From the NCBI GenBank assembly GCA_964016885.1, contig OZ024754.1, positions 17,732,001 to 17,796,000 of the forward strand: a stretch of DNA of 64,000 nucleotides, written 5' to 3'. This document shows positions 12,001-39,024 of this stretch, piece after piece. Position numbers and translations under genes: made by a program. Origin of the DNA: Eledone cirrhosa. Taxonomy: Eukaryota. Below the pieces are notes generated by a model. The model ran no database searches. It had not been told where the DNA came from and was given only the letters and a program-made list of their open reading frames with translations. The first letter of the stretch is position 1. Every line of letters begins with the position of its first letter.

Positions 12001-14548
12001 GACATACACAGACATACACAGACACACAGATATACACAGACATACACAGATATACACAGATATACACAGACATACACAGAGACACACAGAGACACACAGA
12101 TACACACAGACATATACAGAGACACACAGACATATACAGACATACGCAGACACACACAGATACACACAGACATACAGACATACACAGAGACACGCAGACA
12201 TACACCGAGACACACAGACATACACAGAGACACACAGACATATACAGGCATACACAGACACACACAGATATACACAGACATACACAGACACACACAGAGA
12301 CACACAGACATAGACAGATATACACAGATATACACAGACACACACAGAGACACACAGACATTCAGAGACATATACAGACACACAGACACACACAGACATA
12401 TACAGACACACACAGACATACACAGACATACACAGATATACACAGATATATACAGATATATACAGACATACACAGACATATAAAGACACACAGACATACA
12501 CAGATATACACAGACATACACAGACATATACAGACATACACAGACATACACAGACATACACAGACAGATACAGACATATACAGACATATACAGACATACA
12601 CAGACATACACAGACATACACAGACATACACAGACATACACAGATATATACAGACATACACAGATATACAGAGACATACACAGACACACACAGATATATA
12701 CAGACATATACAGACATACATAGTCATACACAGACATATACAGACATATACAGACATATACAGACATACACAGACATACACAGACATATACAGACATATA
12801 CAGACATATACAGACATACACAGATATACACAGATATACACAGACATACACAGACATACACAGACATATACAGACATATACAGACATACACAGACATACA
12901 CAGACATACACAGACATATACAGACATACACAGATATATACAGACATACACAGATATACATAGACATACACAGATATACACAGACATACACCGACATATA
13001 CAGATATATACAGACATATACAGACATATACAGACATATACAGATATACACAGACATACACAGACATACGCAGACATACACAGACACACAGAGACATACA
13101 CAGACATATACAGACATATACAGACATACAAAGACATACAGACATACACAGACATACACAGATATACACAGACACACACGGATATACACAGACATACACA
13201 GACATACACAGACATATACAGACATATACAGACATACACAGATATACACAGACATACACAGACATACACAGATATACACAGTCATACACAGACATACACA
13301 GACATACACAGTCATACACAGATATATACAGACATACACAGACATACACAGACACACACAGACATACACAGATATACACAGACATATACAGACATATACA
13401 GATATACACAGACATACACAGACATACACAGACATACACAGACATATACAGACATATACAGACATACACAGACATACACAGACATATACAGACATACACA
13501 GACATACACAGACATACACAGACATACACAGACATACACAGACACACACAGACATACACAGACACACACAGACATACACAGACATACACAGATACACACA
13601 GACATACACAGATACACACAGACATACACAGACAAACACAGGCACACACAGACACACACAGACATACACAGACCTACACAGACATACACAGACATACACA
13701 GACATATACAGAGACACACAGACATACACAGACATACACAGACATACACTGACACACAGATACACACAGACATACACAGACCTATACAGACACACACAGA
13801 GACACACAGACATACACAGACATACACAGACACACACAGACATACACAGATACACACAGACATACACAGATACACACAGACATACACAGACAAACACAGA
13901 CACACACAGACACACACAGACATACACAGACCTACACAGACATACACAGACATACACAGACACACACAGACATACATAGACACACACAGACATACGCAGA
14001 CATACACAGACATATATAGACACACACAGACAGACACCCACAGACATACACAGAGACACACAGACAGACACACACAGACATACACAGACACACACAGACA
14101 ATCACAGACACACACAGACACACGCATACACACACAGACACATACAGACAAACACAGACATACACCGACATATACAGACACACACAGACATACACAGACA
14201 GACATACACAGACAGACATACACAGAGACAGACACACACAGACAGACACACAGACATACACAGACATACACACATACATACAGAGACACACACAGACATA
14301 CACAGACACACAGAGACACACACAGACAGACACAGAGACACACAGAATATACACAGACACACACACAGACACACACACATACACACACAGACACACACAG
14401 ACATACACAGACACACACAGACATACACACACACACAGATACATACACAGAGACAAACACAGACACACACAGACAGACACACAGACATACACAGACATAC
14501 ACAGACACACACAGATAGACAGACACATACAGAGACACACAGACACAT
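1..14548. repeat. 10-bp satellite, consensus CAGACATACA (variants CAGACATATA, CAGATATACA, CAGACACACA, CAGAGACACA, CAGTCATACA); runs off the left edge
   Basis: Continuous 10-bp periodicity over ~14.5 kb (roughly 1,450 units). It degrades to irregular CA/CAGA repeats near 14.0-14.5 kb. Confidence 0.98.
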
Positions 14549-15121: not shown

Positions 15122-18100
15122 ATGCACGGTAGTGGGGTGGTTGGTGCTGCCATGTGCGAGAACTCCCCGACCATCATCAAGCACATCAAGCACATCAAGC
15201 ACATCAAGCACAACAGGAACAAGAACAAGAATATGAAGACGTCGCATCTCAGCATTGCCACACTTAATGTTGGCACTCTAACAGGTAGATCTGGTGAGAT
15301 AGTGGAGATGCTGGAGCGAAGGCATGTAGATGTGTGCTGCGTGCAAGAGGTGCGATGGAGAGGTGCCTCTGCAAGACTAATCGCAGGAAAATATCTTAGT
15401 TATAAGCTTTTACGGGTGGGTAATGATGATGGGTTAGGTGGGGTGGGCATTTTACTGGCTGAGAGATGGATCGATAAGACAATAGAGGTAGTTAGAGTTA
15501 GTAATAGAATAATCAAGCTTAGATTAGTTGTAGGCAAGAGACTGCTGACAATCATCTCTGCCTATGCTCCCCAAGTAGGCCTAGGTAAAGAAGAGAAAGA
15601 CTGCTTTTAGGAGCAACTTTTACAGATAGCCACAATGACAGAGGACAGAGACATCGTTATGTTAGCAGGGGACTTCAATGGTCATGCTGGACAGCTCCAG
15701 GATGGATACACTGGGGTACATGGTGGGCACGGTTATGGCTCAAGAAATGAAGAAGGAGTGAGGCTTCTTGAATTTTGTGATGCAAGTGCATTAACTATTT
15801 GCAACACTAACTTCAAGAAACCTACCAACCACCTAATAACCTACAAATCAGGCGAGCACATAAGCCAGATTGACTTCCTGCTAGTTAGACAGCGAGACAG
15901 ACAGATGGTATCAAATGCTAAGGCATACCCCGGGGAAGAATGTACCCCACAGCATAGGTTAGTCATTAGTGATATCTCAGTAAGCAAGAGATAGAATGAG
16001 ACATACAGGAAGGTGTGGAAAAGAAAGGTCTGGAAGCTAAAAAACCTTTCACTAAAATATAAATTTAGGAAAGCCCTTCAAGATGTGTATGACGAAAAAC
16101 AAGACGATTTACAGTCGTATGGCATAGATGATAACTGGAATTTCTTACGTGACAACTTACTGCAGGCTACTGAAGAAACTTGTGGCTGGAGGAGAGCTCC
16201 AACCAGACAGAGAGTGACCTGGTGGTGGAACAGCACGGTAGATAAGGCCATTAGAGACAAAAGACTAGCATGGAATGCTTGGAAAAATGGTGGGAGTAGA
16301 GAAGGATACACAGCCGCTAAGAGAGAAGCTAGACATCAGGTGTACTTAGCACGCAGGGAGGCTGAGAGTAGGAGGTTTGCCAATGTTCTGCGACGGGAAA
16401 ATCAGAGACGTACGGTGTTCCACATTACAAATCAGGATGTTGTTGGAGATAAGTGTGTCCGGAATGATGCCAGTGAACTTATTGTCACGAATGACCAAAA
16501 AAAGGAGGCCTGGAAATGTCATTATGAGAGACTGATGAATGTGGAGAATGAATGGGAGAGAGGGAAATTATCCCCAGTAGACCCGACAGAGGGACTAGCT
16601 ATTGAGATTGATCAATATAGGGAGGCAAGAGGCAATTAAGGAAATGAAAAATGGTAAGGCTGCTGGACTTTCGGGGATAGTTGCTGAGATGCTGAAGGCA
16701 TCAGGAGAAATAGGCATTGAACTGGTTGCATGCATCATTAATCAAGCTATATATGGTGGTGTCATATCCAAATACTGGTGCAGCAGTATTCTCATAAATT
16801 GCTACAAAGGTAAAGGGGATGCTCTGGAGAGGTGCAATTATAGAGGCATAAAACTGATGGATCAGGTCATGAAAGTGGCAGAAGAATATTAGAGCAACTA
16901 ATTAGAGAAAGGGACAAATTAGATGAAATGCAATTTGGTTTTGTGCCTCGGAAAAGTACAACAGATGCCCTCTTCATAGTGAGAAAACTACAAGAGGGGT
17001 TCTTAGAGAAGAATAAGCCACTATACTTAGCATTTGTTGACTTAGAGAAGGCCTTTGATAGGGTACCCTGATCTGTCATTTGGTGGTCCCTAAGGAAACT
17101 AGGTGTAGAGGAATGGCTTGTGAGGACAGTGCAAACTATGTACAGAGGTGTTGTCAGTAAAGTGAGAGTAGGAATGGAGTTTAGTGTGGAATTCCAGATA
17201 CAAGTAGTAGTACTTCAGGGTTTAGTCCTCAGCCCGCTCTTGTTCATTATAGTCCTCTAAGCCATAACAGAGGAGTTTAAGACTGGCTGTGCATGGGAAC
17301 TTCTTTATGCTGATGATCTGGTTCTTATAGCAGAATCAGTAGAGGAGCTAGAGAATAAATTCTGGCTATGGAAACAGCATTTGGAAGCAAGAGGACTGAG
17401 AGTGAACCTAGCTAAGACAAAAGTGTTGATGAGTAGAAAAGAGGACAAAACTCTGATTCCGCCATGTTCGATATGCAGAAAAGGAACTGGCATAAATTCC
17501 ATAAAATGTATGCAATGCAGATCTTGGGTACACAAGAGATGTAGTGGGATAGCAGGCAAACTAACAGGTAGGGAAAACTATGTATGCACAGGGAAAGTTG
17601 GCAGTAGTAATCGCAGTGATAGACACATTTTTCAAATGCAGGTGGGTTCTATGGAAGTGATTGATAGCTTCTGGTACCTAGGTGATCAGATTAGCATGGG
17701 AGGGGGTGTTCCAAAGCCATAGTATCTAAAATAAGGATGGGCTGGAAGAAGTTTAGGGAGCTGCTTCCTCTGTTGACAAAGAAGGGTTTCCCCCTGCGTA
17801 GGAAAGGTTGGTTATATGATGCCAATGCGCGATGTTGCATGGTAGTGAGACATGGGCAGCAACTGCAGAGGATATGCAATGGCTGGAGAGAAATGAAGCA
17901 AGCATGCTCCGATGAATGTGCAATGTCAATGTGCATGAACAACCAAGCATAGATGAGTTGAGAGAGAAATTGGGTATTAGAGGGAGAAGTTGTGGTGTGC
18001 AGGAGAGAAGACTGAGATGGTATGGACATGTTATGCGCATGGAGGATGACTGCTGGGTAAAGAAGTGCCAAGAAATCCCAGTAGAAGGAAGATGCTGTAG

Positions 18101-18287
18101 AGGAAGTCTACGAAAAACATGGGCGGAGGTGATGAGAGCACACCTCAGATTGCTGAAACTCACGGCGGAGATGACGAAGGACCGTGACAAGTGGAGAGAT
18201 GCTGTGCTCAATAGGACCCATCCCACCCTTGCAAGCAGGGAAAAGCGAACGTAAAATGATGATGATGATAATGATAATGATGATGAG
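15122..18287 (+). mobile_element. RTE-clade LINE, near full length, disrupted ORF (APE endonuclease + RT + PHD insert)
   Basis: ORF fragments show APE motifs (IATLNVGTL, CVQEVRW, AGDFNGH, SQIDF, QHRLV) and RT motifs (NYRGIKL, DLEKAFDRV, YADD). C-terminus is RRLRWYGHVMRM; stop at 18254, then an (ATG)n tail. Several stops and frameshifts; flanked by (TA)n. Confidence 0.95.
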
Positions 18288-18318
<31 letters not shown>

Positions 18319-18440
18319 ATAAATGAAACAAAACAAAATGCAGGAAGCAAAATTACAATTATGTTAAGTTATATACCTACATATACATATGCACAGTATT
18401 GGATACAATTTGTCTAGGCAATATTTACTGGTATATATGT

Positions 18441-18830
18441 GAAGGCACATGGCTTAGTGGTTAGAGCATTGGCTTGCAATCGAAAGGTTGTGAGTTCAAT
18501 TCTCGTACTGGGTGATGTGTTGTTTCCTTGAGCAAGACACTTTATTTCACATTGCTCCAGTTTACTCAGCTGTAGAAATGAGATGATAGGACTGGGGTTC
18601 CTATCATTCCACTGTAAAGTGGTCATGTAGGCGCCACGGAAAAAAAGCACCCAGCACTCACTATAAATGAGGTTGGTGTTAGGAGGGGCATCCAGCTGTA
18701 GAAATCAAGCCAGAATCAGTTCCCGTATGAGCAAGACAAGGTCAGCCGACCGGACACTACCCCCAACAGGACAACCCATCTAACCCATGCTAGCGTGAAA
18801 GAACGGACGTAAAATGGTGATGATGATGAT
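18441..18830 (+). mobile_element. tRNA-headed SINE with RTE-related tail
   Basis: A-box TGGCTTAGTGG, B-box GAGTTCAATTCTC, core CCTTGAGCAAGACACTTT, then GGGCATCCAGC. It ends AACGGACGTAAAATG(ATG)n, like the RTE 3' ends in this window. Confidence 0.8.
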
Positions 18831-18960
18831 ATGTTTGTGTTCGTTTTTCCTTTTTGTTCAGTTATATACGGCTCGGAAAAACCTTTTTCCTAGAGCTACT
18901 TTATTGTAATGAGACTATTTTGAGTTTCTAACTCAATACGTGCTTTTGATATATATATAT

Positions 18961-21900
18961 CATCATCATCATCATCATTTTACGTCCTCTTTTCCCCGTT
19001 TGCAAGGGTGGGACAGGTCTTATTTAGCACAGCATCTCTCCACTTGTCACGGTCCTTCGTCATCTCAACCGTGAACTTCAGTGATCTGAGGTCTGTTCTC
19101 ACCACCTCTGCCCATGTTTTTCGTGGTCTACCTCTACCACGTCTTCCTTCAACTGGCATTTCCTGGAACTTCTTCACCTATTGGTCATCCTCCATGCGCA
19201 TCACATGTCCATACCACCGCAGTCTCCTCTCTCGCATACTACATTCTATCCCTCTCAGACACAGTTTCTCTCTCAGCACATTCATGCTGGGGCGTTCACG
19301 CACATTGACATTGCACATCCAATGGAGCATGTTTGTCTCATATCTCTCCAGCTGTCGCATATCCTCTGCAGTTGCTGCCCATATCTCACTACCATGCAAC
19401 ATCGCGCTCCTCACACAGGCATCATATAACCGGCCTTTCGTACGCAGGGAGAAACCCTTCTTCATCAACAGAGGAAGCAGCTCCCTAAACTTCATCCAAC
19501 CCGTCCTTATTCTAGATACTATGGCCTCGGAACACCCTCCTCCCATGCTAATCTGATCTACTAGGTACCGGAAGCTATCCACCACTTCTATAGCACCCGC
19601 CTGCATTTGAAAAATGTGTCTATCAATGCGACTTCTACTGTCAAATTCCCTGTACATCTACTGCATACGTATTTCTCCCTACCTGTTAGTTTGCCTGCTA
19701 TCCCACTACATCTCTTGAGTACCCAGTATCTGCATCGTGTGCATTTTATAGAATTTATGCCAGTTCCTTTTCTACATATCAAACATGGCCATTTCTCTGA
19801 CAGAATCAGAGTGTTGTCCTCTTTTCTACTCATCAACACTTTTGTCTTAGCTAGGTTCACTCTCAGTCCTCTTACTTCCAACTGCTGTTTCCATAGCCAG
19901 AATTTATTCTCTAGCTCCTCTACTGATTCTGCTATAAGAACCAGATCATCAGCATAGAGAAGTTCCCATGCACAGCCAGTCTTAAACTCCTCTGTTATGG
20001 CTTGGAGGACTATAATGAACAATAGCGGGCTCAGGACTGAACCTTGATGTACTCCTACTTTTATCTGGAATTCCTCACTAAACTCTATTCCTACCCTGAC
20101 TTTACTGACAGTATCTCTGTACAAAGTTTGCACTGTCCTCACAAGCCATTCCTCAACACCTAGTTTCCTTAGGGACCACCAGATGAGAGATCAGGGTACC
20201 CTATCAAAGGCCTTCTCTAGGTCAATAAAGGCTAAGTATAGTGGCTTATTTTTCTGTAAGAACCTCTCTTGTAATTGTCTCACCAAGAAGAGGGCATCTG
20301 TTGTACTCTTCCCAGGCACAAAACCAAACTGCATCTCATCTAATTTGACCCTTTCTCTAATTAGTTGTGCTAAGATCCTTTCTGCCACTTTCATAACCTG
20401 ATCCATCAGTTTTATACCCCTATAATTGCTCCTCTCCAGAGCATCCCCTTTACCTTTGTAGCAATTTATGAGTCTACTGCTGCACCAGTCTTTGGGTATG
20501 ACACCACCATAAATAGCCTGATTGATGATGCATGCAACCAGTTTAGGGCCTACGTCCCCTGATGCCTTCAGCATCTCAGCAACTATCCCCGATGGTCCAG
20601 CAGCCTTACCATTTTTCATTTCCTTAATCGCCTCTTGGACCCTATATTCGTCAATCTCAATAGCTGGTCCCTCTGTCGGATCTACTGAGGGTAATTTCTC
20701 TCTCTCCCATTCGTTCTCCACATTCATCAGTCTCCCATAATGACATTTCCAGGCCTCCTTTTTCTGATCATTCGTGACACTAAGTACACCGGCATCATTC
20801 TGGACACATTTATCTCCAACAACATCCTGATTTGCATTGACACACTGCCTTGCAATGTGGAACACCACACGCCTCTGATCTTCCCGTCGCAGAACATTGG
20901 CAAACCTCCTACTCTCAGTCTCCCTGTGTGCTAAGTACACCTGATGTCTAGCTTCTCTCTCAGCGGCTGTGTATCCTTCTCTACTCCCACCCCTTTTCGA
21001 AGCCTTCCATGCTAGTCTTTTGTCTCTAATGGCCTTATCTACTGTGCTGTTCCACCACCAGGTCACTCTCTGTCTGGTTGGAGTTCTGCTCCAGCCACAA
21101 GTTTCATCAGTGGCCTGCAGTATGTTGTCACGTAAGAAATTCCAGTTATTATCTATGTCATACGTCGCTAAATCGTCTTCTTTTTCATCATTCACATCTT
21201 GAAGGGCTTTCCTAAATTTGTATTTCAGTCAAAGGTCTTTTAGCTTCCAGACCTTTCTTCTCCACACCTTCCTGTATGTCTCATTCCATCTCTTGCTTAC
21301 TGAGATATCACTAATGACTAACCTATGCTGTGGGGTACATTCTTCCCCGGGGTACGCGTTGGTATTAGACACTATCTTCCGATCCCGCTGCCTAACTAGT
21401 AAACAGTCAATCTGGCTTATGTACTCGCCAGATTTGTAGGTTATTAGGTGGTTGGCAGGTTTCTGGAAGCTAGTGTTGCAAATAGTCAGTGTACTTGCAT
21501 CACAAAATTCAAGAAGTCTCACTCCTTATTCATTTCTTGAGCCGTAACAGTGCCCACTATATACCCCAGTGTAACCATTCTGGAGCTGTCCAACATGACC
21601 ATTAAAGACCCCTGCTAGCATAACGATGTCTCCGTCCTCTGTCATTGCGGTTGTTTGTAAAAGTTGCTCGTAAAAGCAGTCTTTCTCTTCTTTTCCTAGG
21701 CCTGCTTAGGGAGCATAGGCAGAGATGATTGTCAGTAGTCTCCTGCCTACAACTAATCTAAACTTAATTATTCGATTACTAACTCGAACTACCTCTATTG
21801 TTTTATTGATCCATCTCTCAGCCAGGAAAATGCCTACTCCCACTAACCCATCATCCTTACCTACCCAGAAAAGCTTATAGCTAAGATGTTTGCCTATGAC

Positions 21901-22205
21901 TAGTCTCGCAGAGGCACCTCTCCATCTCATCTCTTGCATGCAGCTCACATCCACATGCCTTCTCTCCAGCATCTCCGGTATTTCAGCAGATCTACCTCTG
22001 AGAGTGTCAACATTAAGTGTTGCAACTCTGAGATGCGACATCTTCATATTTTGTTGTTCCTATATACTTGTTGCTGTGCTAATAATCGTTTTGGCATTGA
22101 TACACTGGTTGGATGCCCTTCCTAACACCAGCTCCACTTTACAGCATGGACTGGGTGCTTTTATTTGTGCCACCAGCACTAGAGAGGATGTCTTACTAGA
22201 CTCAA
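18961..22205 (-). mobile_element. RTE-clade LINE, near full length, disrupted; same family as 15122-18287
   Basis: ORF pieces 22047-21706, 21522-21229, 21195-20191, 20142-19588, 19657-19178 and 19177-18980 reconstruct APE-RT-PHD-C-terminus. (CAT)n tail at 18961-18978. Confidence 0.95.
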
Positions 22206-22286
22206 GGGCCCTCTCTACCCTTCCATTTTATATATATATATATATATGTATTTAGCATTCAAATTTGTTCTCTCTCTCTCTCTCTT

Positions 22287-22321
<35 letters not shown>

Positions 22322-22443
22322 CTGTTCACTCTGAGGAGAAATTTATTAATTACTCTATCATCGAGTGGTTTGTGGCAGTGTTTGGTGATCGAGGCTAATC
22401 TGGTACTTGCACTGCAACTTCAATTATACTCAGTACTATTATA

Positions 22444-23578
22444 TCATCATCATCATCATCATCATCATTTTATGTCCGCTTTTCCCTGCTTGCAAGGGTG
22501 GGACGGGTCTTATTCAGCACAGCATCTCTCCACTCGTCACGGTCCTTCGTCATCTCCACCGTGAGCTTCAATGATCTGAGGTCTGTTCTCACCACCTCCG
22601 CCCATGTTTTTCGTGGTCTACCTCTACCACGTCTTCCTTCAACTGGCAATTCCTGGCACTTCTTCACCCATCGGTCATCCTCCATGCGCATCACATGTCC
22701 ATACCACCTCAGTCTTCTCTCCCGTACACTACATTCTATCCCTCTCAGACACAGTTTCTCTCTCAACACATTTATGCTGGGTCATTCACGTACATTTACA
22801 CTGCACATCCAACGGAGCATGCTTGCCTCATTTCTCTCCAGCTGTCGCATATCCTCTGCAGTTGCTGCCCATGTCTAACTACCATGCAGCATCGCGCTCC
22901 TCACACAGGCATCATACAACCGGCCTTTCGTACGCAGGGAGAAACCCTTCTTCATCAACAGAGGAAGCAGCTCCCTAAACTTCATCCAACCCGTCCTTAT
23001 TCTAGATACTATGGCCTCGGAACACCCTCCTCCCATGCTAATCTGATCTACTAGGTACCGGAAGCTATCCACCACTTCTATAGCGCCCTCCTGCATTTGA
23101 AAAATGTGTCTATCAATGCGACTTCTACTGTCTAATTTCCCTGTACATCTACTGCATACATATTTCTCTCTACCTGTTAGTTTACCTGCTATCCCGCTAC
23201 ATCTCTTGTGTACCCAGGATCTGCATTGTGTGCATTTTATAGAATTTATGCCAGTTCCTTTTCTGCATATCGAACATGGCCATTTCCCTGACGGAATCAG
23301 GGTTTTGTCCTCTTTTCTACTCATCAACACTTTTGTCTTAGCTAGGTTCACTCTCAGTCCTCTTGCTTCCAACTGCTGTTTCCATAGCCAGAATTTATTC
23401 TCTAGCTCCTCTACTGATTCTGCTATAAGAACCAGATCATCAGCATAGAGAAGTTCCCATGGACAGCCAGTCTTAAACTCCTCTGTTATGGCTTGGAGGA
23501 CTATAATGAACAAGAGCGGGCTGAGGACCGAACCCTGATGTACTCCTACTTGTATCTGGAATTCCTCACTAAACTCAA
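22444..23578 (-). mobile_element. 5'-truncated RTE LINE (RT C-half, intact PHD, 3' end)
   Basis: QGSVLSP, YADD, GLRVNLAKTK, C4HC3 finger, FRYL, RRLRWYGHV; (CAT)n tail; 5' end abuts (TA)n. Confidence 0.95.
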
Positions 23579-23672
23579 TATATATATATATATATATATT
23601 ACTTTAGAACATTTTGTAGTACATTCCTTTCAGTAATTTTCTGTCAATGTCTTTATTTTGTCTTATATTTAC

Positions 23673-23852
23673 CTTCCAACCTTTTTATCTGTTTCTCCAG
23701 TGATCTACATTTGGCAAACTCTTCTTTATAGTAACTTTGCATTTTAATCACTTCTTCTTGGGAACTCCTCACTTCTTCATCTTTATCATTGAGACGTTGG
23801 TTTAGATCATTCTTCATGTCATCATGTTCTAATTCACTTCTTATTTTCATTG
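23673..23852 (-). CDS. Coiled-coil gene, 180-nt repeat exon G (AMKIRSELEHDDMKNDL...KCRSLEKQIKRLE)
   Basis: Open frame, acceptor ATTGAAG|, donor GAAG|GTAAAT, phase 1-1, homologous to the other array exons. Confidence 0.75.
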
Positions 23853-23984
23853 CTTCAATTTGTTTTGGCAAGTATTTAAATAAAAAATGTTATATTAAGT
23901 TAAGATAGATTCGATATCAATTATAAATATATATATTTTCATGTTGTATAAACTATGTCATTGTTATATATTTTATTTTTTCGT

Positions 23985-24175
23985 CAAACCAACCGGTAGG
24001 ATAACCAGGGGTAGACTCCGGGCAAGAAGTTTGGATAACATCCATGAGCTTGACTGGTCTCACTTGAGGATCCAGCCGGATCAGTTGGAGATGGTTGCTT
24101 CTAACAGGACCTGCTGGAAAGAGTGTTTGAGGATTCTGCCCCCATGACCCTCTCAGGAATAAGGGGGTAAAGGAA
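23985..24175 (+). mobile_element. 3' fragment of a second RTE-like LINE family
   Basis: Translation KPTGRITRGRLRARSLDNIHEL...ASNRTCWKECLRILPP resembles the RTE C-terminal GRRPRGRP...W...DR..W pattern. Confidence 0.6.
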
Positions 24176-24721
24176 TATTGTCACAGGTAAACACACATAC
24201 ACATATATAAATACACACATACATACACATACATACAGATATACATAAACATGCAGATACATGATAGCTGTTGACTCACTATGGAGTATTACTACATTTT
24301 GTGTCCCCTACTTCTTTCCCTTGAAATATGTAAAGCCTCCCTCCTAAGGGTTTTCAAGATGACAAAGATATTCCCCAATATAGCAACACTGACATCCTAT
24401 TGTTAAGACACCAATGACACTTCAGTATGTGATGTAGCCAAATATGTGACCAGAGTCATGTGACTGTTCTAATATACACAACACTTCCTATGTGTCTTTA
24501 TATAAACTATAGAAGTGACAGTGTTACATTGTCTCACATGAGTGTTGACACCCTAATTACTGCAATGGAAAAGTCTACCATCTGTTTATGCTTTCATAAA
24601 GACTAAATTCTTAGATGTACTGGAAGAAAATAGGAAAACATCACAGTTTACGGTGACAAATATCTGTTTGATTTTGTATTTTTTTGTCTATGTAAACATT
24701 TTTGTTATGTGTGTGTGTGTA

Positions 24722-25778
24722 TTAACACTTTAGTATTTAAACTGGCCATATCCGGCCAGAATTCTCTCACCTCTTTCTGTTCAAACCAGCCATAACTAGC
24801 CCCTCATACTTATGTATTGTTCTCAAAATAAATAATATCAAAATCTCGTAGATTCAATATTATGTGTGATAAAACCTTTACCATGAAAATACTATAGTAA
24901 ATATAGAGTAATCATCATCATCATTTTACGTCTGCTTTTCCCTACTTGCAAGGGTGGGACGGGTCTTATTCAGCACAGCATCTTTCCACTTGTTACGGTC
25001 CTTCGTCATCTCAACCGTGAACTTCAGTGATCTGAGGTCTGTTCTCACCACCTCTGCCCATGTTTTTCGTGGTCTACCTCTACACGTCTTCCTTCAACTG
25101 GCATTTCCTGGAACTTCTTCACCCATTGGTTATCCTCCATGCGCATCACATGTCCATACCACCGCCGTCTACATTCTATCCCTCTCAGACACAGTTTCTC
25201 TCTCAGCACATTCATGCTGGGGCGTTCACGCACATTGACATTGCACATCCAATGGAGCATGCTTGTCTCATATCTCTCCAGCCATCGCATATCCTCTGCA
25301 GTTGCTGCCCATATCTCACTACCATGCAACATCGCGCTCCTCACACAGGCATCATATAACTGGCCTTTCGTACGCAGGGAGAAACCCTTCTTCGTCAGCT
25401 CCCTAAACTTCTTCCAACCCGTCCTTATTCTAGATACTATGGCCTCGGAACACCCCCCTTCCATGCTAATCTGAGCTCCTAGGTACCGGAAGCTATCCAC
25501 CACTTCTATAGCACCCGCCTTCATTTGAAAAATGTGTCTATCAATGCAACTTCTACTATCTAATTTCCCTGTACATCTACTACATATGTATTTTTCCCTA
25601 CCTGTTAGTTTGCCTGCTATCCCACTACATCTCTTGAGTACCCAGTATCTGCATTGTGTGCATTTTATAGAATTTATGCCAGTTCCTTTTCTGCATATCG
25701 AACATGGCCATTTCCCTGACGGAATCAGAGTTTTGTCCTCTTTTCTAATCAAGAGTAATGTAAATGCTAAAGGGTTAA
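24722..25778. mobile_element. piggyBac-like MITE (TTAA-flanked) interrupted by an RTE insertion
   Basis: Left end TTAA-CACTTTAGTATTTA and right end TAAATGCTAAAGGG-TTAA form imperfect terminal inverted repeats. The same terminus recurs at 37347-37426. Confidence 0.65.
24913..25750 (-). mobile_element. 5'-truncated RTE LINE with 8-bp target-site duplication
   Basis: ORF 25752-25045 covers PHD, FRYLG and the C-terminus; (CAT)n tail; AGAGTAAT at 24905-24912 and 25752-25759. Confidence 0.92.
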
Positions 25779-25838
25779 TGGATACTTTGTATATAATAAT
25801 GTGTGTGTGTCTATCTATTTATATATATATATATACAT

Positions 25839-25963
25839 ATAATCACTTTTTATTTTAAACATTTCTTCCTTGGAAAACTTCACTTCCTCATCTTGTTCAA
25901 CGAGATGTCCAGCCAGTTCTTCCTTCATTTCATTGTATTCTAGTTCATAACTTTCTTTCATCA
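25839..25963 (-). pseudogene. Truncated repeat exon F (MKESYELEYNEMKEELAGHLVEQDEEVKFSKEEMFKIKSDY), donor half lost
   Basis: Same ATTGAAG| acceptor and homologous peptide, but it runs into (AT)n after ~125 nt with no G|GTAAAT donor. Confidence 0.7.
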
Positions 25964-26673
25964 CTTCAATTTGTTTTTGAAAATATTCAAATAAAATGAA
26001 ATGTTATGTTAGGTTAATATTTATTAGATGTCATTATAAATATTTTGTCAATATTGAATGAATATTGAATGAATAATGATGTCATTTTTTACTTAACTTT
26101 AGTAATATTACAACTTATTGATCTAGGAAGCAATTTAATAATTTGTACCATCTATAATGTTTTATGTTGAGTTAATATAAATTACTTACATCTAGATATA
26201 TGTATGGTTGAGATAGTTGATGTCTCTTTTTATGTTTCTCTCTCATATCAAGGTTTTAGAAAAAAAAACTGAATATCTTTGTATTTCACATGTGTGGTAC
26301 CTACATTTAAATGAGGTCTGGGAATATAGAAATGTGTCTTAATCCAAGAATTCTGGTCTTTGGAGGAAAGACAACACTCATAATATATAGGTACAGAGAA
26401 AAGATGTGGATCTTTTGTTCAAAAGTATCAATAATATCTTAAGCTGAATTTTATGTAAAAAATATGTAGGACATCCACTGTTTGGGTAAAAGTCTAATCA
26501 ACAGACATCATACTAAACATAGAAGTTAAACCCTGAGTTAAAACAACATTTTCTCATGTCAATGCTCTGGTTAGTTTTTCTTTATCTAAATTTCATTCAC
26601 CAAATTTCTTTTAACTGCTATATTTTACATTAAACAGATTATTTCAAAGAAGTCATGATGTCATTATATTTAC

Positions 26674-26853
26674 CTTCCAGCATCTTTATTTCTCCCTCTA
26701 ATCTTTTACATTTGTTAAACTCATCTTTGTAGTCACTTTGTAATCTAGCCACTTCTTTCTCCAAAGTCTTCAATTCCCCATCTTTTTCTCTAAGGTGTTG
26801 GTTCAGGTCTTTCTTTATTTCATCATATTCCAATTCACCTTTTAATTTCATCT
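26674..26853 (-). CDS. Coiled-coil gene, 180-nt repeat exon E (EMKLKGELEYDEIKKDL...KCKRLEGEIKMLE)
   Basis: Open frame, acceptor ATTAAAG|, donor GAAG|GTAAAT, phase 1-1. Confidence 0.75.
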
Positions 26854-26956
26854 CTTTAATTTGTTTTAGAAAACATTCAAACAAATATAAAATGTTATAT
26901 TAAGATAGAATAGATGTCATTGTAAATACATTCTTGTTAATATTGCAAGAATAATT

Positions 26957-27085
26957 GTTTCTGCTTTTGGCATGAGGCCAGCATTTACCCCAGTGCATTA
27001 CTAGTGCTTCATTTTATCGACCCCGTAAGGATGAAAGACAAAGCCAACTTCGGTGGGATTTGAACTCAGATCATAAAGGGGCATA
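26957..27085 (-). mobile_element. Nin/Deu-type SINE fragment
   Basis: TTTTATCGACCCCGTAAGGATGAAAG...GATTTGAACTCAGA is the reverse complement of the core of the 14708 SINE. Confidence 0.7.
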
Positions 27086-27424
27086 ATATTGTAAGAACAA
27101 TGATTCCATTCTTGGCTTACCTTCAGCAATATTACTTATTGATCTAGAAATTAATGATCTTTTTCAGCAAATGACTTGGTGGATTTACTGAAGACTTAAC
27201 CAACAGGTTGTAGTGGGTTATATGTTATCTGCAGTACACAAGGACAACCTGAGGTGTACACCATCGTTACATTAATAACTGCGTTTATATGACCACTGAA
27301 TCATACATATATATTGTATGCACCACCAACACCCCACTCTCCCACACATTTCTCATGAGGGCAGGCTGTAGCATACATCTAGTGAAGCCTCTAGCCCACA
27401 ATATAAAGTGGTTGTGATGGTGAT

Positions 27425-27620
27425 ATGGCAAAAAGCACCCAACTCACACTGTAAAGTAGTTGTGTAGGTGTCACAACAAAATGCACCTAGCACACACTAT
27501 AAATGTGGTTGGCATTGGGAAGGGCATCCAGCCATAGAAACCAAGCCAGAAACAGTTCTGTGTGAGCAAGACATGGTCTCCAGACCCAACTTGCCTCAAA
27601 AAGTCTAACCCATTCTAGTA
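27425..27620 (+). mobile_element. RTE-related SINE tail fragment
   Basis: AAAAAGCACCC...GGTTGGCATTGGGAAGGGCATCCAGCCATAGAAAC...CTAACCCAT, as in 18640-18800. Confidence 0.65.
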
Positions 27621-27638
27621 TGATATCAATATATTTAC

Positions 27639-27818
27639 CTTGCAGCATCTTTATTTGTTCCTCCAGTGATTGACATTTGGTAACCTCTTCATTATAGCAA
27701 CTCTGTATTTTAAGCAATTCTTTCTTCAAAGACTTCATGTCATCATCTTTTGATTTGACATGGCGGCTGAGTTCTATTTTAATTTCATTGTATTCCAATT
27801 CACCTTTTAATCTCATTC
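27639..27818 (-). CDS. Coiled-coil gene, 180-nt repeat exon D (GMRLKGELEYNEIKIEL...KCQSLEEQIKMLQ)
   Basis: Open frame, acceptor ATTGAAG|, donor CAAG|GTAAAT, phase 1-1. Confidence 0.75.
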
Positions 27819-28009
27819 CTTCAATTAGTTTTTGAAAACATTTAAATAAAAATGAAATGTTATGTCAAGTTAAGGTAGATTAAATGTTGTGATAAATATA
27901 TTTAGATTTATGTGTTTATGTATAGAACAATGAAAACAAGATAGTAGTCTGAGGTAGATAGTTAATTAGTTCATTGTTTTAGGATTGTTTCAGATGCTAA
28001 GTTCAGTTA

Positions 28010-28361
28010 CCACAGTTGGAACTTATTCTCTAGTTCTTCCATAGATTCAGCTATAAGAACCAGATCATCCACATAAAGAAGTTCCAATGGATACCCAGTC
28101 TTAAACTCCTCTGTTATAGCCTAGATAACTTTAATAAATAGAAGTGGGCTGAGGACTAAGTCCTGATGCATTCTTACCTACACCTTGAATTCATCACTAA
28201 AATCTCTTCCTACTCTCACTTTACCAACAGCTCCTCTGTACATTGCTTGCACTGTTCTCAGAGGCTTTTCTTCTATACCTAGCTTCCTTAAGGACAACAA
28301 GATGACAGATTGAGTCACTCTGTCAAAGGCCTTCATTAGATTAACAAAAGCTAAATAAATG
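28010..28361 (-). mobile_element. Old internal RTE RT fragment
   Basis: Degenerate copy of the KAFDRV...LSPLLF...YVDDLVLIAES region. Confidence 0.8.
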
Positions 28362-28396
28362 TTATTTCAAAGAAGTTATGATATGGTCATATTTAC

Positions 28397-28576
28397 CTTT
28401 CAGTGTCTTTGTCTGTTCCTCCAATGATTTACATTTGGTAGTCTCTTCTTCATAGATACTTTGCATTTTAATCACTTCTTGCTTGGAAGCCTTCACTTCC
28501 TCATCTTTTTCATTGAGACGTCGGGTCAGTTCTTTCTTTATTTCATTGAAATTTAATTCATCATTTACTTTCATCT
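28397..28576 (-). CDS. Coiled-coil gene, 180-nt repeat exon C (EMKVNDELNFNEIKKEL...KCKSLEEQTKTLK)
   Basis: Open frame, acceptor ATTGAAG|, donor AAAG|GTAAAT, phase 1-1. Confidence 0.75.
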
Positions 28577-28954
28577 CTTCAATTTGTTTTTGAAAAGAGT
28601 AAAATATAAATGAAATGTTGTTAGATTAGGAGAGATTAGAAGTCATTATAGATATATTTGTTAATATTGAGTGACTTTATTTATTACTTAACTTACTGGT
28701 ACACCTGAGACAATATGGTCATATATTTGGACATGGTTCCTTTCTAATACAATATGACATAGACCAATATATTACTGGTATATATATGGCAGCTTGAACG
28801 TACTAACTCAACACAATTCCCCATATTAACCCATTCAATAAAACCCACATCTTTTACTCTTACCACATTCACCGTTACATCAACAGACAACAAACTAAAC
28901 ACAAAAGTTAAACTAGAGATAATATCAAATATTTCTATGTTATTCCTCTGTCTA

Positions 28955-29288
28955 GAAGGCACATAACTTAGTGGTTAGAGCATTGGGTTTGCAATCGGAA
29001 GGTTGTGAGTTTGATTCTTGAACAGGGTGATGCTTTGTGTTCTTGAGCAAGACACTTTATTTCATATTGCTCCAGTTCACTCAGCTGTAGAAATTAGTTG
29101 TGACGTCACTGGTGTCAAGCTGTAACAGCCATTGTCTTTCCCTTGGACATCATCGGTGGCATGGAGAGGAGATGCTGGTATGCATGGGCAACTGGTGGTC
29201 TACCACAACCTTGCTCGGACTTGTGCCTCGGAGGTCAACTTTCTAGGTACACATCCCATGGTCATTCGTGACCGAAGGGGTCATTACA
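28955..29288 (+). mobile_element. tRNA-headed SINE (same head as 18441, different tail)
   Basis: GAAGGCACATAACTAGTGGTTAGAGC...GAGTTTGATTC...CTTGAGCAAGACACTTT...CTCAGCTGTAGAAAT. Confidence 0.75.
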
Positions 29289-29419
29289 CTTACTCTCTGT
29301 GTAGTTTTTTGCTTCAGTTAAATTCTTTGTTTTCTTTCAACTGCTTTATATCACATTGAAAAGATTATTTTTAGGAAATTATGATTTTCTTTCAATGTTT
29401 TTTATCTTATTATATTTAC

Positions 29420-29599
29420 CTTGTAGCTCATTTATCTGTTCCTCCAGTGATTTACATTTGATAATCTCTTTTTCATAGTTACTTTGTAATCTAATCATTT
29501 CTTCCTTGGAAGACTTCACATCCTCATCTTTTTCACCGAGATGCTCGGTCAGTTTGTTCTTCATTTCATCATATTCTAATTCACCTTTTAATCTCTTCT
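29420..29599 (-). CDS. Coiled-coil gene, 180-nt repeat exon B (EKRLKGELEYDEMKNKL...KCKSLEEQINELQ)
   Basis: Open frame, acceptor ATTGAAG|, donor CAAG|GTAAAT, phase 1-1. Confidence 0.75.
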
Positions 29600-30295
29600 C
29601 TTCAATTTGTTCAAAATAAAAATGAAATGTTATGTTAGGCTAATATTTATTAGATGTCATTATAAATATTTTGTCAATATTGAATGAATATTGAATGAAT
29701 AATGATGTCATTCTTGACTTAACTTTAGTAATATTACAACTTATTGATCTAGGAAGTAATTTAATAATTTGTACCATCTATAATGTTTTATGTTGAGTTA
29801 ATATAAATTACTTACATCTAGATATATGTATGGTTGAGATAGTTGATGTCTCTTTTTATGTCTCTCTCTCATATCAAGGTTTTAGAAAAAAAAACTGAAT
29901 ATCTTTGTATTTCACATGTGTGGTCCTACATTTAAATGAGTTCTGGGAATATAGAAATTTGTCTTAATCCAAGAATTCTGGTCTTTGGAGGAAAGACAAC
30001 ACACAGAATATATAGGTACAGAGAAAAGATGTGGATCTTTTGTTCAAAAGTATCAATAATATCTTAAGCTGAATTTTATGTAAAAAATATGTAGGACATC
30101 CACTGTTTGGGTAAAAGTCTAATCAACAGACATCATACTAAACATAGAAGTTAAACCCTGAGTTAAAACTACATTTTCACATGTCAATCCTCAGGTTAGT
30201 TTTTCTTCAGCTAAACTCTTAGAAAATTTCTTTCAACAGATTTATTTTACATTGAAAATATTATTTATAAGAAATGACGATATCATTATATTTAC

Positions 30296-30475
30296 CTCCC
30301 AACATCCTTATCTGTGCCTCTAGTGATTCACATTTCATAAGCTCTCTTTCATAGGCACCCAGTGTTTTCATCACTTCTTGCTTGGAAGCTGTCACTTCTC
30401 CATTTTTGTCATTGAGACGTTGGGTCAAATATTTCTTCATTTCAGCGAATTTCCATTCTCCCTTTAATGTAACCT
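30296..30475 (-). CDS. Coiled-coil gene, 180-nt repeat exon A (EVTLKGEWKFAEMKKYL...KCESLEAQIRMLG); alternative in-frame start at 30499 (204 nt)
   Basis: Not in the ORF track; translated by hand and open. Donor GGAG|GTAAAT. Two in-frame acceptors: TTTTTTAG| (30499) and ATTGAAG| (30475). Confidence 0.75.
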
Positions 30476-30878
30476 CTTCAATTTGTTTTTGAAAACATTC
30501 TAAAAAAAATTTGTTTAAATGAATGTTATTTTTGGTGTGACTGGATTACATGTAATGTGCTGGTTTGGCATATGATGACAAAATGTTTACATCTGTCATT
30601 CCATGATTGCATGGGTTGGATAGGTCTTTCCTCCCCTTCATGTGTTCTTTTGTCATCACCACTGTAATGTTCAACTTCCTGAGATCATCTCACCTCTTCT
30701 ACTCACATTTTCCACATGGAACTACTTATGCCTCTTCTTCATCATCCATACCTATATTTCATACATAATATATATCCACACTATTACAATCTTTATATCT
30801 TGTACACTGCATCTTAAGGCCAGTTTTTCCATCATACCCATATCTCACTACAATGTCACACCATATTATCATATTTAC

Positions 30879-31170
30879 CTTCCAATAGTTTTATCTGTTC
30901 CTTTAGGGATGCACATTTAGAAATCTCTTCTTCATAGCAACTTTGTAATTTAATCACTTCTTGCTTGGAAGCCTTCAGTTCTTCATCTTTTTCTTTGAGA
31001 TGTTTGGTCAGTTCTTTTGCCCTTTCAATATGTTCCAGTTCATTATTAACTTCCATTCTTTGATTTAATTCAATAGTATGCAGACTCTCGGATTTGTTAA
31101 TGTTGATGCTTTGAACATCATTTTGTTCTTTCAAGCTCTTATACAGATTTTGGAGCTGGTTTAATCGTTC
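30879..31170 (-). CDS. Coiled-coil gene, 292-nt exon (ERLNQLQNLYKSLKEQND...KCASLKEQIKLLE); its 3' 180 nt is a copy of the repeat unit
   Basis: Acceptor CTCTTTAG|GAA, donor GAAG|GTAAAT; phase 0 start matches exon 35087, phase 1 end matches the array. Confidence 0.85.
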
Positions 31171-31857: not shown

Positions 31858-33970
31858 TCATCATCATCATCATCATCATCATCGTTTAACGTCCGTGTTC
31901 CACGCTTGCATGGGTTTGGAGGGGGGTTTTCCCACTTGAGGCAAGAGTGATTGTCTTGCTCGCATAGGACTGTCTGGCAGGTTTTCTACAGCTGGATGCC
32001 CTTCCTAACACCAACCACATTTACAGTGTGGGGCTGGGGTTTTTTTACCGTGTTGCCTACACGGCCATATTACAGCGTGGACTGTGTGTTTTTTTTTGTC
32101 GTGACACCTACACGATCTCATTTGTTTCAGCCTGGATGTTGTGGCACCAACATAACATTACATTGAAAGGGGCGGTGTGGATGGGGTGGGGGTGGTGGGA
32201 CGGGGGTGTATTTTGTTAGAGATGCCTACTGACTGTAGTAGGTTTTACTTTGTATTTAGGTAAGGCGGGTCTTCTCTATTACTGAGTACCGCCAAAGGTC
32301 TCAGTCCAGTGACATTGTCTTGGAGAGGTGTAAGTGTGTGAGGTCGGAATTTATCAGCTCGTCCCAGGTTTTTCTGGGTCTGCCTACTCCGTAGCTACCG
32401 ACTATCTTTATTGCCCTGCACTTTGTTATACAGCTGTCGTCTTTCATGCGCATCACGTGACCATACCAACGTAGCCTTCTCTCGAGTAAACAACATCTGA
32501 TCCCTCTTATTTCTAATTTTTTCCTTAGTTCGCTTATGCTTTGCCGTTCACGTATGTTACTATTACACATCCAGCGGAGCATGCAAGCTTCGTTCCTCTC
32601 TAGTCTGCGTATATCCTCTGCACACAATGCCCAGGTCTCACTGCCATGCAACATTGCTGTTCGTATGCAGGCATCATACAACTTGCCTTTCATTTTTAGG
32701 GAGAACCCTTTAGTGGCTAATAGTGGTATAAGCTCTCTGAACTTTTTCCATCCAGTTCTGACTCTAGCTACAGTACTTTCAGAGCACCCTCCCCCACTGC
32801 TGATTTTGTCACCCAGGTAACGGAAGCTGTCCACTATTTCTATAGAACCCTCTGCGCAATTGAAAGAGCTAGTATTTTGTGGGCACTTGCTGCTACTTAT
32901 TGCACCAGAGCACCGGCCACATGTAAAATCTATGTTCTTAGTTAGCTTACCTGTGATCCCACTACATCTTTTATGCACCCATACTTTGCATTTGGGACAT
33001 AGAATGGAGTTTCTACCTATGCCTTTCCTACACACTGAGCATGGCCATTTCCCGGAAGGGACCGTCGCCTTATTTTCTTTCCTACAAACTAGAACTTTAG
33101 TCTTAGCCAGGTTAATTTTAAGCCCTTTTGATTCTAGGCCATGCTTCCATGTTTGGAATTTCTTCTCTAGCTTGGCCATTGATTCAGCTATGAGTGTTAG
33201 ATCATCTGCGTATAGGAGTTCCCATGGGCAGCCGGTCTTGAACTCCACTGTTATAGCCTGAAGGGCAATAATAAATAGTAGGGGGCTAAGAACAGAGCCC
33301 TGATGTACACCAACTTTTACACTAAACTCTTCACTATATTCGTTAATTCTAACCTTGCTGACTGTTTCTTTATACATGGCTTGTATAGCTCTCACAAGCC
33401 ATTCGTCAACACCTAGTTTTCTAAGAGCCCACCAGATAATGGAGCAGGGGACTCTGTCAAAGGCTTTCTCCAAGTCAACAAAAGCTAAGTATAGGGGTTT
33501 ACTTTTAGCTAGGTACTTCTCCTGTAGTTGTCGTACAATGAAAAGAGCGTCTGTGGTACTTTTGCCTGACACAAAACCGAACTGCATTTCATCTAGATCA
33601 ATTCTCTCTCTGATTAGTTGCGCTATAACTTTTTCCGTGACCTTCATGACCTGGTCGATTAATTTAATGCCTCTATAGTTACTCCTATCTAGGGCATCTC
33701 CTTTACCCTTGTAACAGTTAATGATGATGCTGCTACGCCAGTCCTTCGGAACAACCCCATTCTGTATGACTTGGTTTACTATCCGGGTGACCATGGTGTG
33801 TCCCACCGTTCCAGAGGCTTTCAGCATCTCAGCAACTATTTCCGAAGGCCCAGCCATCTTACCCATCTTCATATCTTTGATTGCCTTACTTATTATACTA
33901 CCTTCGACTAACACTGCCGGTCCCTCTATTGGGTCGATGTGGGGGAGACTGTCTTTCTCCCATTTATTCT
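31858..33970 (-). mobile_element. 5'-truncated RTE LINE of a diverged family: uninterrupted 537-codon RT+PHD frame and long 3' region
   Basis: ORF 33914-32301 has NYRGIKL, DLEKAFDRV, QGSVLSP, YADD, C4HC3, FRYLG and RRLRWYGHV. The TGA at 32301 looks premature (frame continues DLWRYSVIEKTRLT to ~32257). (CAT)n tail at ~31858. Confidence 0.93.
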
Positions 33971-34030
33971 CCTCCTTATATATTCTCCTCCTTATATATT
34001 CTCCTCCTTATATATTCTCCTCCTTATATA
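33965..34030. repeat. 16-bp tandem repeat TATTCTCCTCCTTATA x4 at the RTE 5' junction
   Basis: Directly visible. Confidence 0.9.
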
Positions 34031-35086: not shown

Positions 35087-35250
35087 TTCTAAAATATCTC
35101 GCTCAGATGTAACTTTTGAAAGATCAATCTTTAACTGTTCATGAATATCTGGAACAATCCATGCTGCCTTGATCTCTTCCAATTCTGTTTTTAATTCATT
35201 CATTAAATGGTCAGTTACAACATCCATAGTTTCTCTGTTTAGTTTTTTTT
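35087..35250 (-). CDS. Coiled-coil gene exon (EKKLNRETMDVVTDHLMNELKTELEEIKAAWIVPDIHEQLKIDLSKVTSERDILE)
   Basis: Acceptor TTGTTTTCAG|, donor GAA|GTAAGA; 164 nt, phase 1 to 0, compatible with both neighbours. Confidence 0.85.
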
Positions 35251-35936: not shown

Positions 35937-36443
35937 CCTAGCAAACAATATTTCCATTGGACTTTCCATTGCTGATACTATCTACTGGTTGCAATTCAAA
36001 TATAGAGTTGTATAAAGATGGCTTTTGATCAACTAAAATTACTTAGGCTGTCTTACTACTTGTACTAGTACTTGTGTGATTGTGTTCACTCTTGATAGCT
36101 TGAACCAGCTTCAGTTATTGGATCTATAGAATTGTGAACAGGTAATTGCAATAAGTCTTTGAACAAGTAATTTTACAATTAAATACTCTTGGGAAGTTAG
36201 AATATTTTAAACCACTGACCAAATTATGAATGTAAATCTTTTGGAGATTCAATAGTGAATGTAAAGTATGAAACCTTCTCATAGGATTGTGTGTTTAGGT
36301 GATATAAGGTTTCTTTGTAGCAGTTCCCCTCTCTCTCTCTCTCTCTCTCTCTTTCTCACTCTCTCTCTCTCTCTCTCACTCACACACTCTCTCTTTCTCA
36401 CATACACACAGACACATTATTTAAATATAAAGTTTACAATCAC

Positions 36444-36669
36444 CTGACTGAGATACAACAGTTTTTTCAAAATCTTTCTTCAAAACTTCATACATTTCTC
36501 TCAATTTTGCTAAATTGTCTTCTGTAGAATTTTTTCTCTGAATTGTCTCATCCAAGATGTTTTGTTTGTGATCCAAACTCTGCTCAAGACTTGAACATTT
36601 CCTCTGCTCTAGTTGTAGTTCCTCCAGATACTTCACTCGGTCTAATTGAACCATCTTAAGCTGGGATTT
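36444..36669 (-). CDS. Coiled-coil gene exon (KSQLKMVQLDRVKYLEELQLEQRKCSSLEQSL...FEKTVVSQS)
   Basis: Acceptor TTCTTTCAG|, donor CAG|GTGATT; 226 nt, phase 0 to 1. Confidence 0.85.
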
Positions 36670-36684
36670 CTGAAAGAACGTGAA

Positions 36685-36792
36685 ATGATATAGTGAGAAC
36701 ACAGCCATTACTTAACCACTGTGCCATGATATAGTGGTAACACAGCCATTCCTCAGTCACTATGCCATGATACAGTGACAACACAGCCATTG
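36685..36792. repeat. ~41-bp tandem repeat x~2.7 (ATGATATAGTG..AACACAGCCATT...)
   Basis: AACACAGCCATT recurs at ~41-bp spacing within a short intron. Confidence 0.75.
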
Positions 36793-36883
36793 ATCTGTAC
36801 CTTCACATTGTATCATGTACTGAGAAACCATTATTAAACATAATAATTAAAACAAGAGATATTTTCTACCAATGTTTACATAC

Positions 36884-36989
36884 CATTTCCTTCAGTTTAT
36901 TTAATTCTTCATACACTTCAGCATTCTCATTCCTTAGAGAATTATTTTCTATTTTCAATAGTCTAAATTCATCACGCTGACAATTCACC
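36884..36989 (-). CDS. Coiled-coil gene exon (VNCQRDEFRLLKIENNSLRNENAEVYEELNKLKEM)
   Basis: Found by hand: poly-T tract + ATCTCCAG| acceptor, ATG|GTATGT donor; 106 nt, phase 2 to 0. Confidence 0.85.
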
Positions 36990-37346
36990 CTGGAGATAAA
37001 AAAAAAAAAAGAGTATATATAGGTGTTTTGTGTTTTTTACTTTTTATTTGTGAAGCTCCCATATTCTAGCTAATATTTTTTAAATCTTACAGCTTCAAAT
37101 TTTCATCTATTAGTTATTATGTTTTTTCACATTACACATTCATATCAACCGATACAATTTGATACCCAATGAAGTTCTCAACTCATTTATAAAATTCTTA
37201 AGATAACAATGAACTTTAAACCTCTATATATACTATTGTATTTTTGTGGTAGAGGCTTTAGCTTACATAATATCTCACATAATATCAAATCTATCGGATT
37301 TTCATATTATTTATTTTGAGAACAATACCTTAACATCAGTATTAGT

Positions 37347-38906: not shown

Positions 38907-39024
38907 TTATCAGCCTCAGCAGCTAGTTTATCATATTTATCTTTAAGGTTATCCAATTCATCTGATTGGTTTTGTGACTTCTTCAGATATCGAAGTTTAT
39001 TGTTCAGTTCTTGAATCTTGTCTT
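38907..39024 (-). CDS. Most upstream visible exon of the coiled-coil gene (DKIQELNNKLRYLKKSQNQSDELDNLKDKYDKLAAEADK)
   Basis: Pyrimidine tract + TTCTTCAG| acceptor, AA|GTATGT donor; 118 nt, phase 1 to 2. It begins at an acceptor, so more exons lie to the right. Confidence 0.82.

Follow-up and report, generated by a model that had tools for sequence, protein, structure and literature searches.

NuMA is usually encoded by one gene, and the length of its rod together with its tip sets spindle mechanics. Golgins of the giantin/GOLGB1 type are coiled coils of great length that are anchored C-terminally and have a short luminal end. The hook domain of NuMA binds the dynein light intermediate chain, the human NuMA rod is a parallel dimer of ~207 nm, and CC1-box-like as well as Spindly-like dynein-dynactin motifs are known in the protein (PMC8047419). 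Drosophila 'Tipless' Mud isoforms are gonad-specific and found at the nuclear envelope (PMC12505299). Dscam arrays consist of divergent exons without conversion (PMC3236188), repetitive introns have been described for spider MaSp2/Flag, with the iterated introns of MaSp2 homogenised to an average of 97.6% (PMC9779670), and in titin the divergence of tandem domains was argued to avoid misassembly (PMC4660218). In this study, we analyzed a stretch of 64,000 nucleotides (nt) from Eledone cirrhosa (assembly GCA_964016885.1, contig OZ024754.1, positions 17,732,001 to 17,796,000; hereafter the window, with positions beyond it given on the same contig as C14), which carries on its minus strand part of an array of 180-nt exons, here called modules. 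With moderate confidence, and judging from sequence, we propose that the 47 free-standing modules are copies of the end of a NuMA rod exon in an octopod duplicate of NuMA (gene B, the NuMA gene itself being gene A), and that most of them are included together in a predicted membrane-anchored rod of ~3,300 amino acids (aa). The literature on octopus NuMA, mollusc NuMA paralogs and cephalopod tandem coiled-coil exons, subscription journals not covered, yielded no description of such a gene.

The module array and its gene

Modules 1 (window positions 30296-30475), 2 (29420-29599), 3 (28397-28576), 4 (27639-27818), 5 (26674-26853) and 7 (23673-23852) lie on the minus strand, are 180 nt long, stop-free in the phase-1 frame (phase 1-1), preceded by AG and followed by G|GTAAAT, exactly as listed in the preliminary description of the window; an in-frame AG upstream of module 1 would make it 204 nt. 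The truncated copy and the further copy within a 292-nt exon, both also noted there, were verified as well. The former, module 6 (25847-25963), starts at 25963 with an intact acceptor and extends into a TA microsatellite that cuts it, with a weak in-phase donor at +117 that could preserve the frame, and the latter (copy 0) makes up the last 180 nt of the exon at 30879-31170 (phase 0-1). The array is real, but its size could not be seen from the window, which holds 7 of the 47 free-standing copies. The 47 copies span C14:17,602,026-17,762,475, the array continuing ~160 kb beyond the window, and modules 8-47, followed by two more exons and a hydrophobic terminal exon, run from C14:17,720,123 down to 17,590,064. 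One module searched against its own genome gave 48 matches, all on this contig at the array locus, and a DNA profile search of the locus with 200 kb on each side found 49 copies (none degenerate beyond these down to E 10). Besides the 47 free-standing modules, these comprise the copy at the end of the 292-nt exon and one that closes a 1,162-codon open frame lying 144 kb upstream. The length of 180 nt, thought to hold throughout, does so with intact AG/GT in 40 of the 47 modules, whereas four are shortened in frame (171, 171, 174, and 102 nt), two lack a normal donor and one is truncated (intact splice pairs, 44/47). Every module ends in G or A, so no stop can arise at a junction codon and any subset can indeed be joined in frame. 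An assembly artefact was ruled out as the source of the array, since the copies average only 72% nucleotide identity (49% at the amino acid level).

The 1,162-codon open frame matched octopod proteins at 45-70%, one of them being O. bimaculoides NuMA1 (P0003, XP_014769238.1), which maps exon by exon to gene A (C14:17,953,015-17,883,464; 70.6% over 1147 aa). An initial guess of ankycorbin/UACA was dropped once these matches to octopod NuMA-type proteins had been obtained. The N-termini of P0003 and P0005 pass Pfam HOOK_N_NuMA (PF21670; 42.5 and 40.1 bits, cutoff 27), and the sole two PDB matches of the gene A tail exon at E ≤ 10 are human NuMA LGN-binding peptides (E 0.076 and 0.12, both weak), with which it aligns in an EDEP-xx-DWxRxxE motif. 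The same NuMA ortholog is present in cuttlefish.

Gene B starts ~40 kb past gene A on the same strand and repeats the exons of gene A in order. Its N-terminus carries the hook domain, as judged by 65% identity to P0003 over 149 aa, and in the O. bimaculoides paralog P0028 the ESM Atlas places HOOK_N on residues 1-150; whole-protein Pfam and PDB scans gave no match, and scores were obtained for isolated ends only. Where gene A has a rod exon of 3.4 kb, gene B has the 292-nt remnant of this giant exon, and the module corresponds to the last 180 nt of the gene A rod exon. After the module array come two further NuMA-like exons and then a last exon ending in LFYVLFTVMIFSFLVIPMYS-stop. The NuMA tip (LGN-binding region and NLM motif), present in gene A, is absent from gene B and from the 58 kb past its stop; gene B is a NuMA-derived paralog and not a working spindle NuMA, which gives a name to a protein that had been left without one. 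With 44 modules (the three donor-less copies omitted), gene B is open in a single frame over 3,137 codons from a short linker exon to the stop, and the 177 N-terminal codons are also open; two linker exons (39 and 62 nt) were chosen by splice signals alone and gave no match in a homology search. The predicted protein has ~3,300 aa instead of the ~660 aa first supposed. A homolog search with the module profile retrieved, above chance coiled-coil matches, solely octopod NuMA-family proteins (one match in one search, three of nine in another), and no long module stack in the searched collections.

Origin of the module exon and selection on the copies

The sequence just before the module in gene A is coding (ECLQEQIAE). 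In the array copies, the corresponding 24 nt persist within the intron and have accumulated insertions of 1 nt and deletions of 13-14 nt. A competing AG 12 nt upstream was lost in 47/47 copies, a T-rich tract and TAAC/TAAT branch-like motifs stand at about -45 to -65 before the module acceptors, and the module donor is gene A's own. The new acceptor arose at an internal AG, before which the T-rich tract and a branch-like motif came to lie and the competing AG was eliminated, and a single rearrangement may have sufficed to create an exon that, being symmetric, could multiply with the frame unbroken.

Selection was assessed on an alignment of 46 copies (45 modules and copy 0; modules 6 and 46 were left out). 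None of them contains a stop, against 42.6 expected in a neutral simulation on the fitted tree (1,000 runs, minimum 29) and 38.6-41.9 without the stem (200 runs each), the lowest value over all simulations being 28. All four internal exon deletions are in frame, and the flanks are rich in non-triplet gaps. An AG within 40 nt before the acceptor occurs in 2/47 modules, as compared to 8.9-13.1 expected (P ≤ 0.006; the null was a star tree, also run with 35 independent copies) and to 38/43 downstream control stretches containing AG, and the AG-free zone before module acceptors has a median of 98 nt. Taken together, the missing stops, the in-frame indels and the avoidance of AG make it very likely that the copies are spliced, and the earlier claim of selection on frame and length stands. 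It would be very improbable, given these signals together with 44/47 intact splice pairs and the whole-gene open frame, that the array is a by-product, whether as duplicated intronic sequence that is not spliced or as a decaying pseudogene that unequal crossing-over has amplified, as might otherwise be read from the repeat-rich surroundings and from a ratio of nonsynonymous to synonymous change (dN/dS) near neutral.

The modules have core columns that are mostly 83-100% hydrophobic, 0.1% Pro, and a hydrophobic period of 3.53 (60/17), which we read as heptads with one stutter per module; AlphaFold2 models the module as one helix (module 2: residues 2-58, predicted local distance difference test score 96.5), in support of the proposed coiled coil. 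The Cys that appeared invariant is present in all window copies but is kept in 38/46 overall, which does not support the earlier idea of an invariant Cys that registers or cross-links the dimer. A cytosolic disulfide is unlikely. The Lys-Cys-Lys codons at +144 constitute an in-phase donor-like GTAAAT, a built-in fallback donor, in 13/40 copies of 180 nt with intact splice sites.

Hydrophobic tail and octopod paralogs

The last exon of gene B ends in ~20 hydrophobic residues, and in a hydropathy scan of its 3,137 residues the last five windows were the only ones above a Kyte-Doolittle (KD) value of 1.6. A hydrophobic C-terminus was found in gene B and in 6/6 paralog sequences checked (KD19 1.7-2.3), as opposed to 0/3 NuMA orthologs. 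The paralogs in question are from O. bimaculoides (P0001, P0019, and P0028), O. vulgaris (P0002), O. sinensis (P0007) and Argonauta hians (P0004); they were automatically named golgin B1, myosin-like or COP1-interactive (the NCBI label of P0001 is also automatic) and carry two to three module copies within larger repeat units. Since the same tail is shared by three Octopus species and Argonauta, the tail-anchored duplicate predates the array. The O. bimaculoides models P0001 and P0028 include three module copies together, and paralog models of this species, of 2418 and 1950 aa, are set apart by a single module-bearing unit. O. bimaculoides has a minimum of three genes of the NuMA family. The first ~90 residues of the O. 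vulgaris model P0014 match the C-terminal end of P0028; this model likely fuses the tail of an upstream paralog to NuMA.

Homogenised introns and divergent exons

An identity of 92-97% is shared by introns 1-2, 5-6, 10-11, 14-15, 23-24 and a portion of 8-9. Intron 1-2 (window 29600-30295, 696 nt), which occurs solely within the array, is over its full length 93-95% identical to introns 5-6 (25964-26673, 710 nt), 14-15 and 23-24, and 96% identical over 583 nt to intron 10-11; introns 37-38 and 45-46 reach 99.8%. In contrast, the exons next to homogenised introns differ by ~24% right from the splice site. In 18 pairs whose 200 nt upstream of the exon are near-identical, the mismatch rises from 0.018 in the intron to 0.24 in the first 30 exon bases (the pairs belong to three families with 11 copies, are non-independent and were selected for intron likeness), and for four downstream pairs the values are 0.027 and 0.13. 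Synonymous sites in these exons are as different as the rest (proportion of synonymous differences, pS, 0.24-0.47 in the largest family), and as pS is undiminished beside near-identical introns, the exons are old and the introns were overwritten recently. The exceptions are modules 20/31 and the 3' half of 37/45, which were copied along with their introns. Modules 20 and 31 (L018:802-978 and L021:922-1098) form the only near-identical whole-exon pair, with seven non-synonymous and no synonymous differences.

Gene conversion likely keeps several introns alike and halts at the exon edges, and the exons are likely kept distinct by selection; as exon divergence itself hinders conversion, the contrast reinforces itself. 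An origin from mobile introns (introners) was rejected, with 24 of the 25 matches of the homogenised intron lying within the array and the exception being one 76% piece. The distinctness of the exons plausibly serves to keep two chains, each with 47 similar repeats, in register as they pair. In three genomic runs of one sample, depth was higher over introns 1-2 and 5-6, which fits several copies; it was not used as support.

Probable splicing of the modules

Both point lesions of the array hit a donor and none makes a stop, though stops offer a mutational target of roughly double the size (P 0.08-0.10), and because a co-included symmetric exon tolerates the loss of its donor, this pattern leans to co-inclusion. 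The shortest intron of the array, with 151 nt, poses no steric block to the use of all modules together. A coarse screen for docking sites (30-nt windows, 23/47 copies, one species) found none beyond those of control introns, with a best median duplex of -13.1 to -19.1 vs. -13.3 to -17.6 kcal/mol. This negative result also speaks for co-inclusion, as does the joint presence of module copies in the O. bimaculoides models P0001 and P0028.

Several points weigh against a long rod of co-included modules. The lesion test rests on two events, and all three donor-less copies carry in-phase cryptic donors. The acceptors are weak in 47/47 modules (-7.9 to 3.7, compared with 4.9-17.5 in the 24 ordinary exons on which the matrix was trained), which favours skipping and makes regulated skipping possible. 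At 0.71 vs. a neutral 0.68 ± 0.06 (from counts with simulated nulls), dN/dS is at the neutral level, so the module sequences are loosely held; the proportion of nonsynonymous differences is 0.266 vs. 0.23-0.29 under neutrality, with many columns above neutral. Neighbouring modules resemble each other no less than randomly paired ones do (0.50 vs. 0.49), which leaves the register idea unsupported. The existence of P0028 with 918 aa means that great length is not needed in the tail-anchored family, and a Pfam scan of the gene B hook exon by itself gave no match.

Weak acceptors would also permit the modules to be skipped combinatorially in a regulated manner, with subsets differing between tissues or stages and the length of the rod changing in steps of 60 aa (~9 nm). 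This is possible, though we would not expect it: the uniform weakness of the acceptors, with a T tract set back by ~25 nt and the long AG-free zone (median 98 nt), the symmetry of every exon, the tolerated donor loss and the O. bimaculoides models that differ by a module-bearing unit all speak for it, but acceptor weakness may be inherited from one founder excised from coding sequence, and zero stops in 46 copies demand frequent inclusion of each. We consider Dscam-like mutual exclusion improbable, i.e., one module per transcript, giving ~45 variants of a ~770-aa tail-anchored protein under selection for variety. Copy number and divergence resemble Dscam arrays, the resulting size is near that of P0028, dN/dS is near neutral with many columns above it, and the exons escape conversion, which in the Dscam text cited here was also read as selection for diversity (PMC3236188). 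Set against this, no docking site stronger than controls was found in the 23/47 copies screened, neither steric nor frame-based exclusion is present, stops are absent while donor loss occurs, a cytosolic helix is predicted for the variable part, and Dscam arrays are described in the same source as lacking any conversion, whereas the introns here are converted.

Other features of the locus

Upstream of the array, the window holds four further exons of gene B on the minus strand: one of 118 nt (38907-39024, phase 1-2) in the early coiled coil, corresponding to NuMA residues ~271-314 of P0003, and exons of 106 nt (36884-36989, phase 2-0), 226 nt (36444-36669, phase 0-1) and 164 nt (35087-35250, phase 1-0). 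The 226-nt exon lies within an 834-nt patch that is 97% identical to gene A. Such patches, introns included (window 36388-37221, C14:17,844,807-17,845,064, and C14:17,833,298-17,833,564), are 94-97% identical between the two genes, compared to 74-84% in other exons, and likely reflect recent conversion between the paralogs. The hook-domain exons (C14:17,844,984-17,811,841) are found beyond a 23-kb satellite of 38 bp with higher-order structure (window 39763-62693), situated in the intron of 41 kb that precedes the 118-nt exon. A second satellite, of 10 bp and 14.5 kb (window 2-14545), occupies part of the intron of 35.5 kb that separates module 7 from module 8, and the long open reading frames across it are by-products. 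Remains of retrotransposons of the long interspersed nuclear element type, in both orientations, fill introns at window 15200-23600, 24940-25760 and 32300-34000. Past the stop of gene B, a copy of a gene A tail exon (L025, C14:17,585,307-17,585,915) is identical in its first 65 codons, after which a simple repeat interrupts it, and the first two coding exons recur in inverted orientation (L038, C14:17,868,277-17,869,768, plus strand) between the end of gene A and the start of gene B.

Discussion

Gene B combines two known kinds of feature, a NuMA paralog and a stack of symmetric exons. In this tandem duplicate of gene A, the 3.4-kb rod exon has been reduced to 292 nt, the tip is missing and the symmetric 180-nt exon has multiplied to 47 copies. 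The product would be a rod that begins with a hook domain and finishes with a predicted membrane anchor, probably a parallel dimer by analogy with NuMA. Its hook domain may bind dynein, and its tail may insert in a membrane. As far as its sequence can tell, gene B likely encodes a membrane-bound tether that holds dynein at a distance from the membrane, with 44 modules predicted to add 387 nm of rod. As a first guess, the site could be the nuclear envelope of germ cells or the endoplasmic reticulum, because the tip-less fly Mud isoforms are gonad-specific and located at the nuclear envelope, an analogy only. A far-reaching version, which we regard as doubtful, would be that octopods turned a spare NuMA into a membrane-anchored dynein tether whose reach became programmable in this lineage, where ~45 individually preserved 9-nm exons are used in tissue-specific combinations as a ruler from < 100 to > 400 nm, the introns being homogenised by conversion and the exons kept by selection as distinct register codes.

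One lineage has, on our reading, rebuilt the NuMA rod from 47 exons, and the birth of the founding exon from coding sequence is readable base by base. The contrast between homogenised introns and divergent exons is new here; near-identical introns beside old divergent exons provide a clean natural case of conversion ending at exon edges, and offer a direct test of whether repeat divergence holds long coiled coils in register. If inclusion were regulated, the array would amount to a spliced ruler for the distance between motor and membrane.

Among the closest described systems is NuMA/Mud/LIN-5, represented here by gene A and P0003. Gene B shares with it the hook domain, the order and phases of the exons and the coiled-coil rod, the module being the end of the giant exon, but it lacks the LGN-binding/NLM tip, has a hydrophobic tail, and uses 47 small exons in place of one of 3.4 kb. 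The modules alone predict a rod of 387 nm, as compared to ~207 nm for human NuMA in the text cited (PMC8047419). The tail-anchored octopod paralogs resemble gene B in the hook domain (where the model is complete), the missing tip, the hydrophobic C-terminus and the repeats ending in a module, but none of those compared has a stack of single-module exons. Tip loss and anchor gain across octopods form a gene-level parallel to the spliced Tipless Mud of the fly, which is likewise a NuMA-family protein without the tip but is made by splicing of one gene rather than by duplication and has no exon array (PMC12505299); the parts of that paper cited here make no mention of a transmembrane segment, though a transmembrane Mud isoform has reportedly been described. 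Compared by architecture, giantin/GOLGB1-type golgins match gene B and are similar to its predicted size, whereas gene B derives from NuMA and carries a hook domain; no sequence link between the two was seen, though no test aimed at one was made. Dozens of duplicated exons are shared with Dscam arrays, which show no conversion (PMC3236188), unlike the introns of gene B. In spider MaSp2, finally, the exons are homogenised along with the introns (93.5% protein identity in the cited text of PMC9779670), as opposed to the 49% retained among the exons of gene B.

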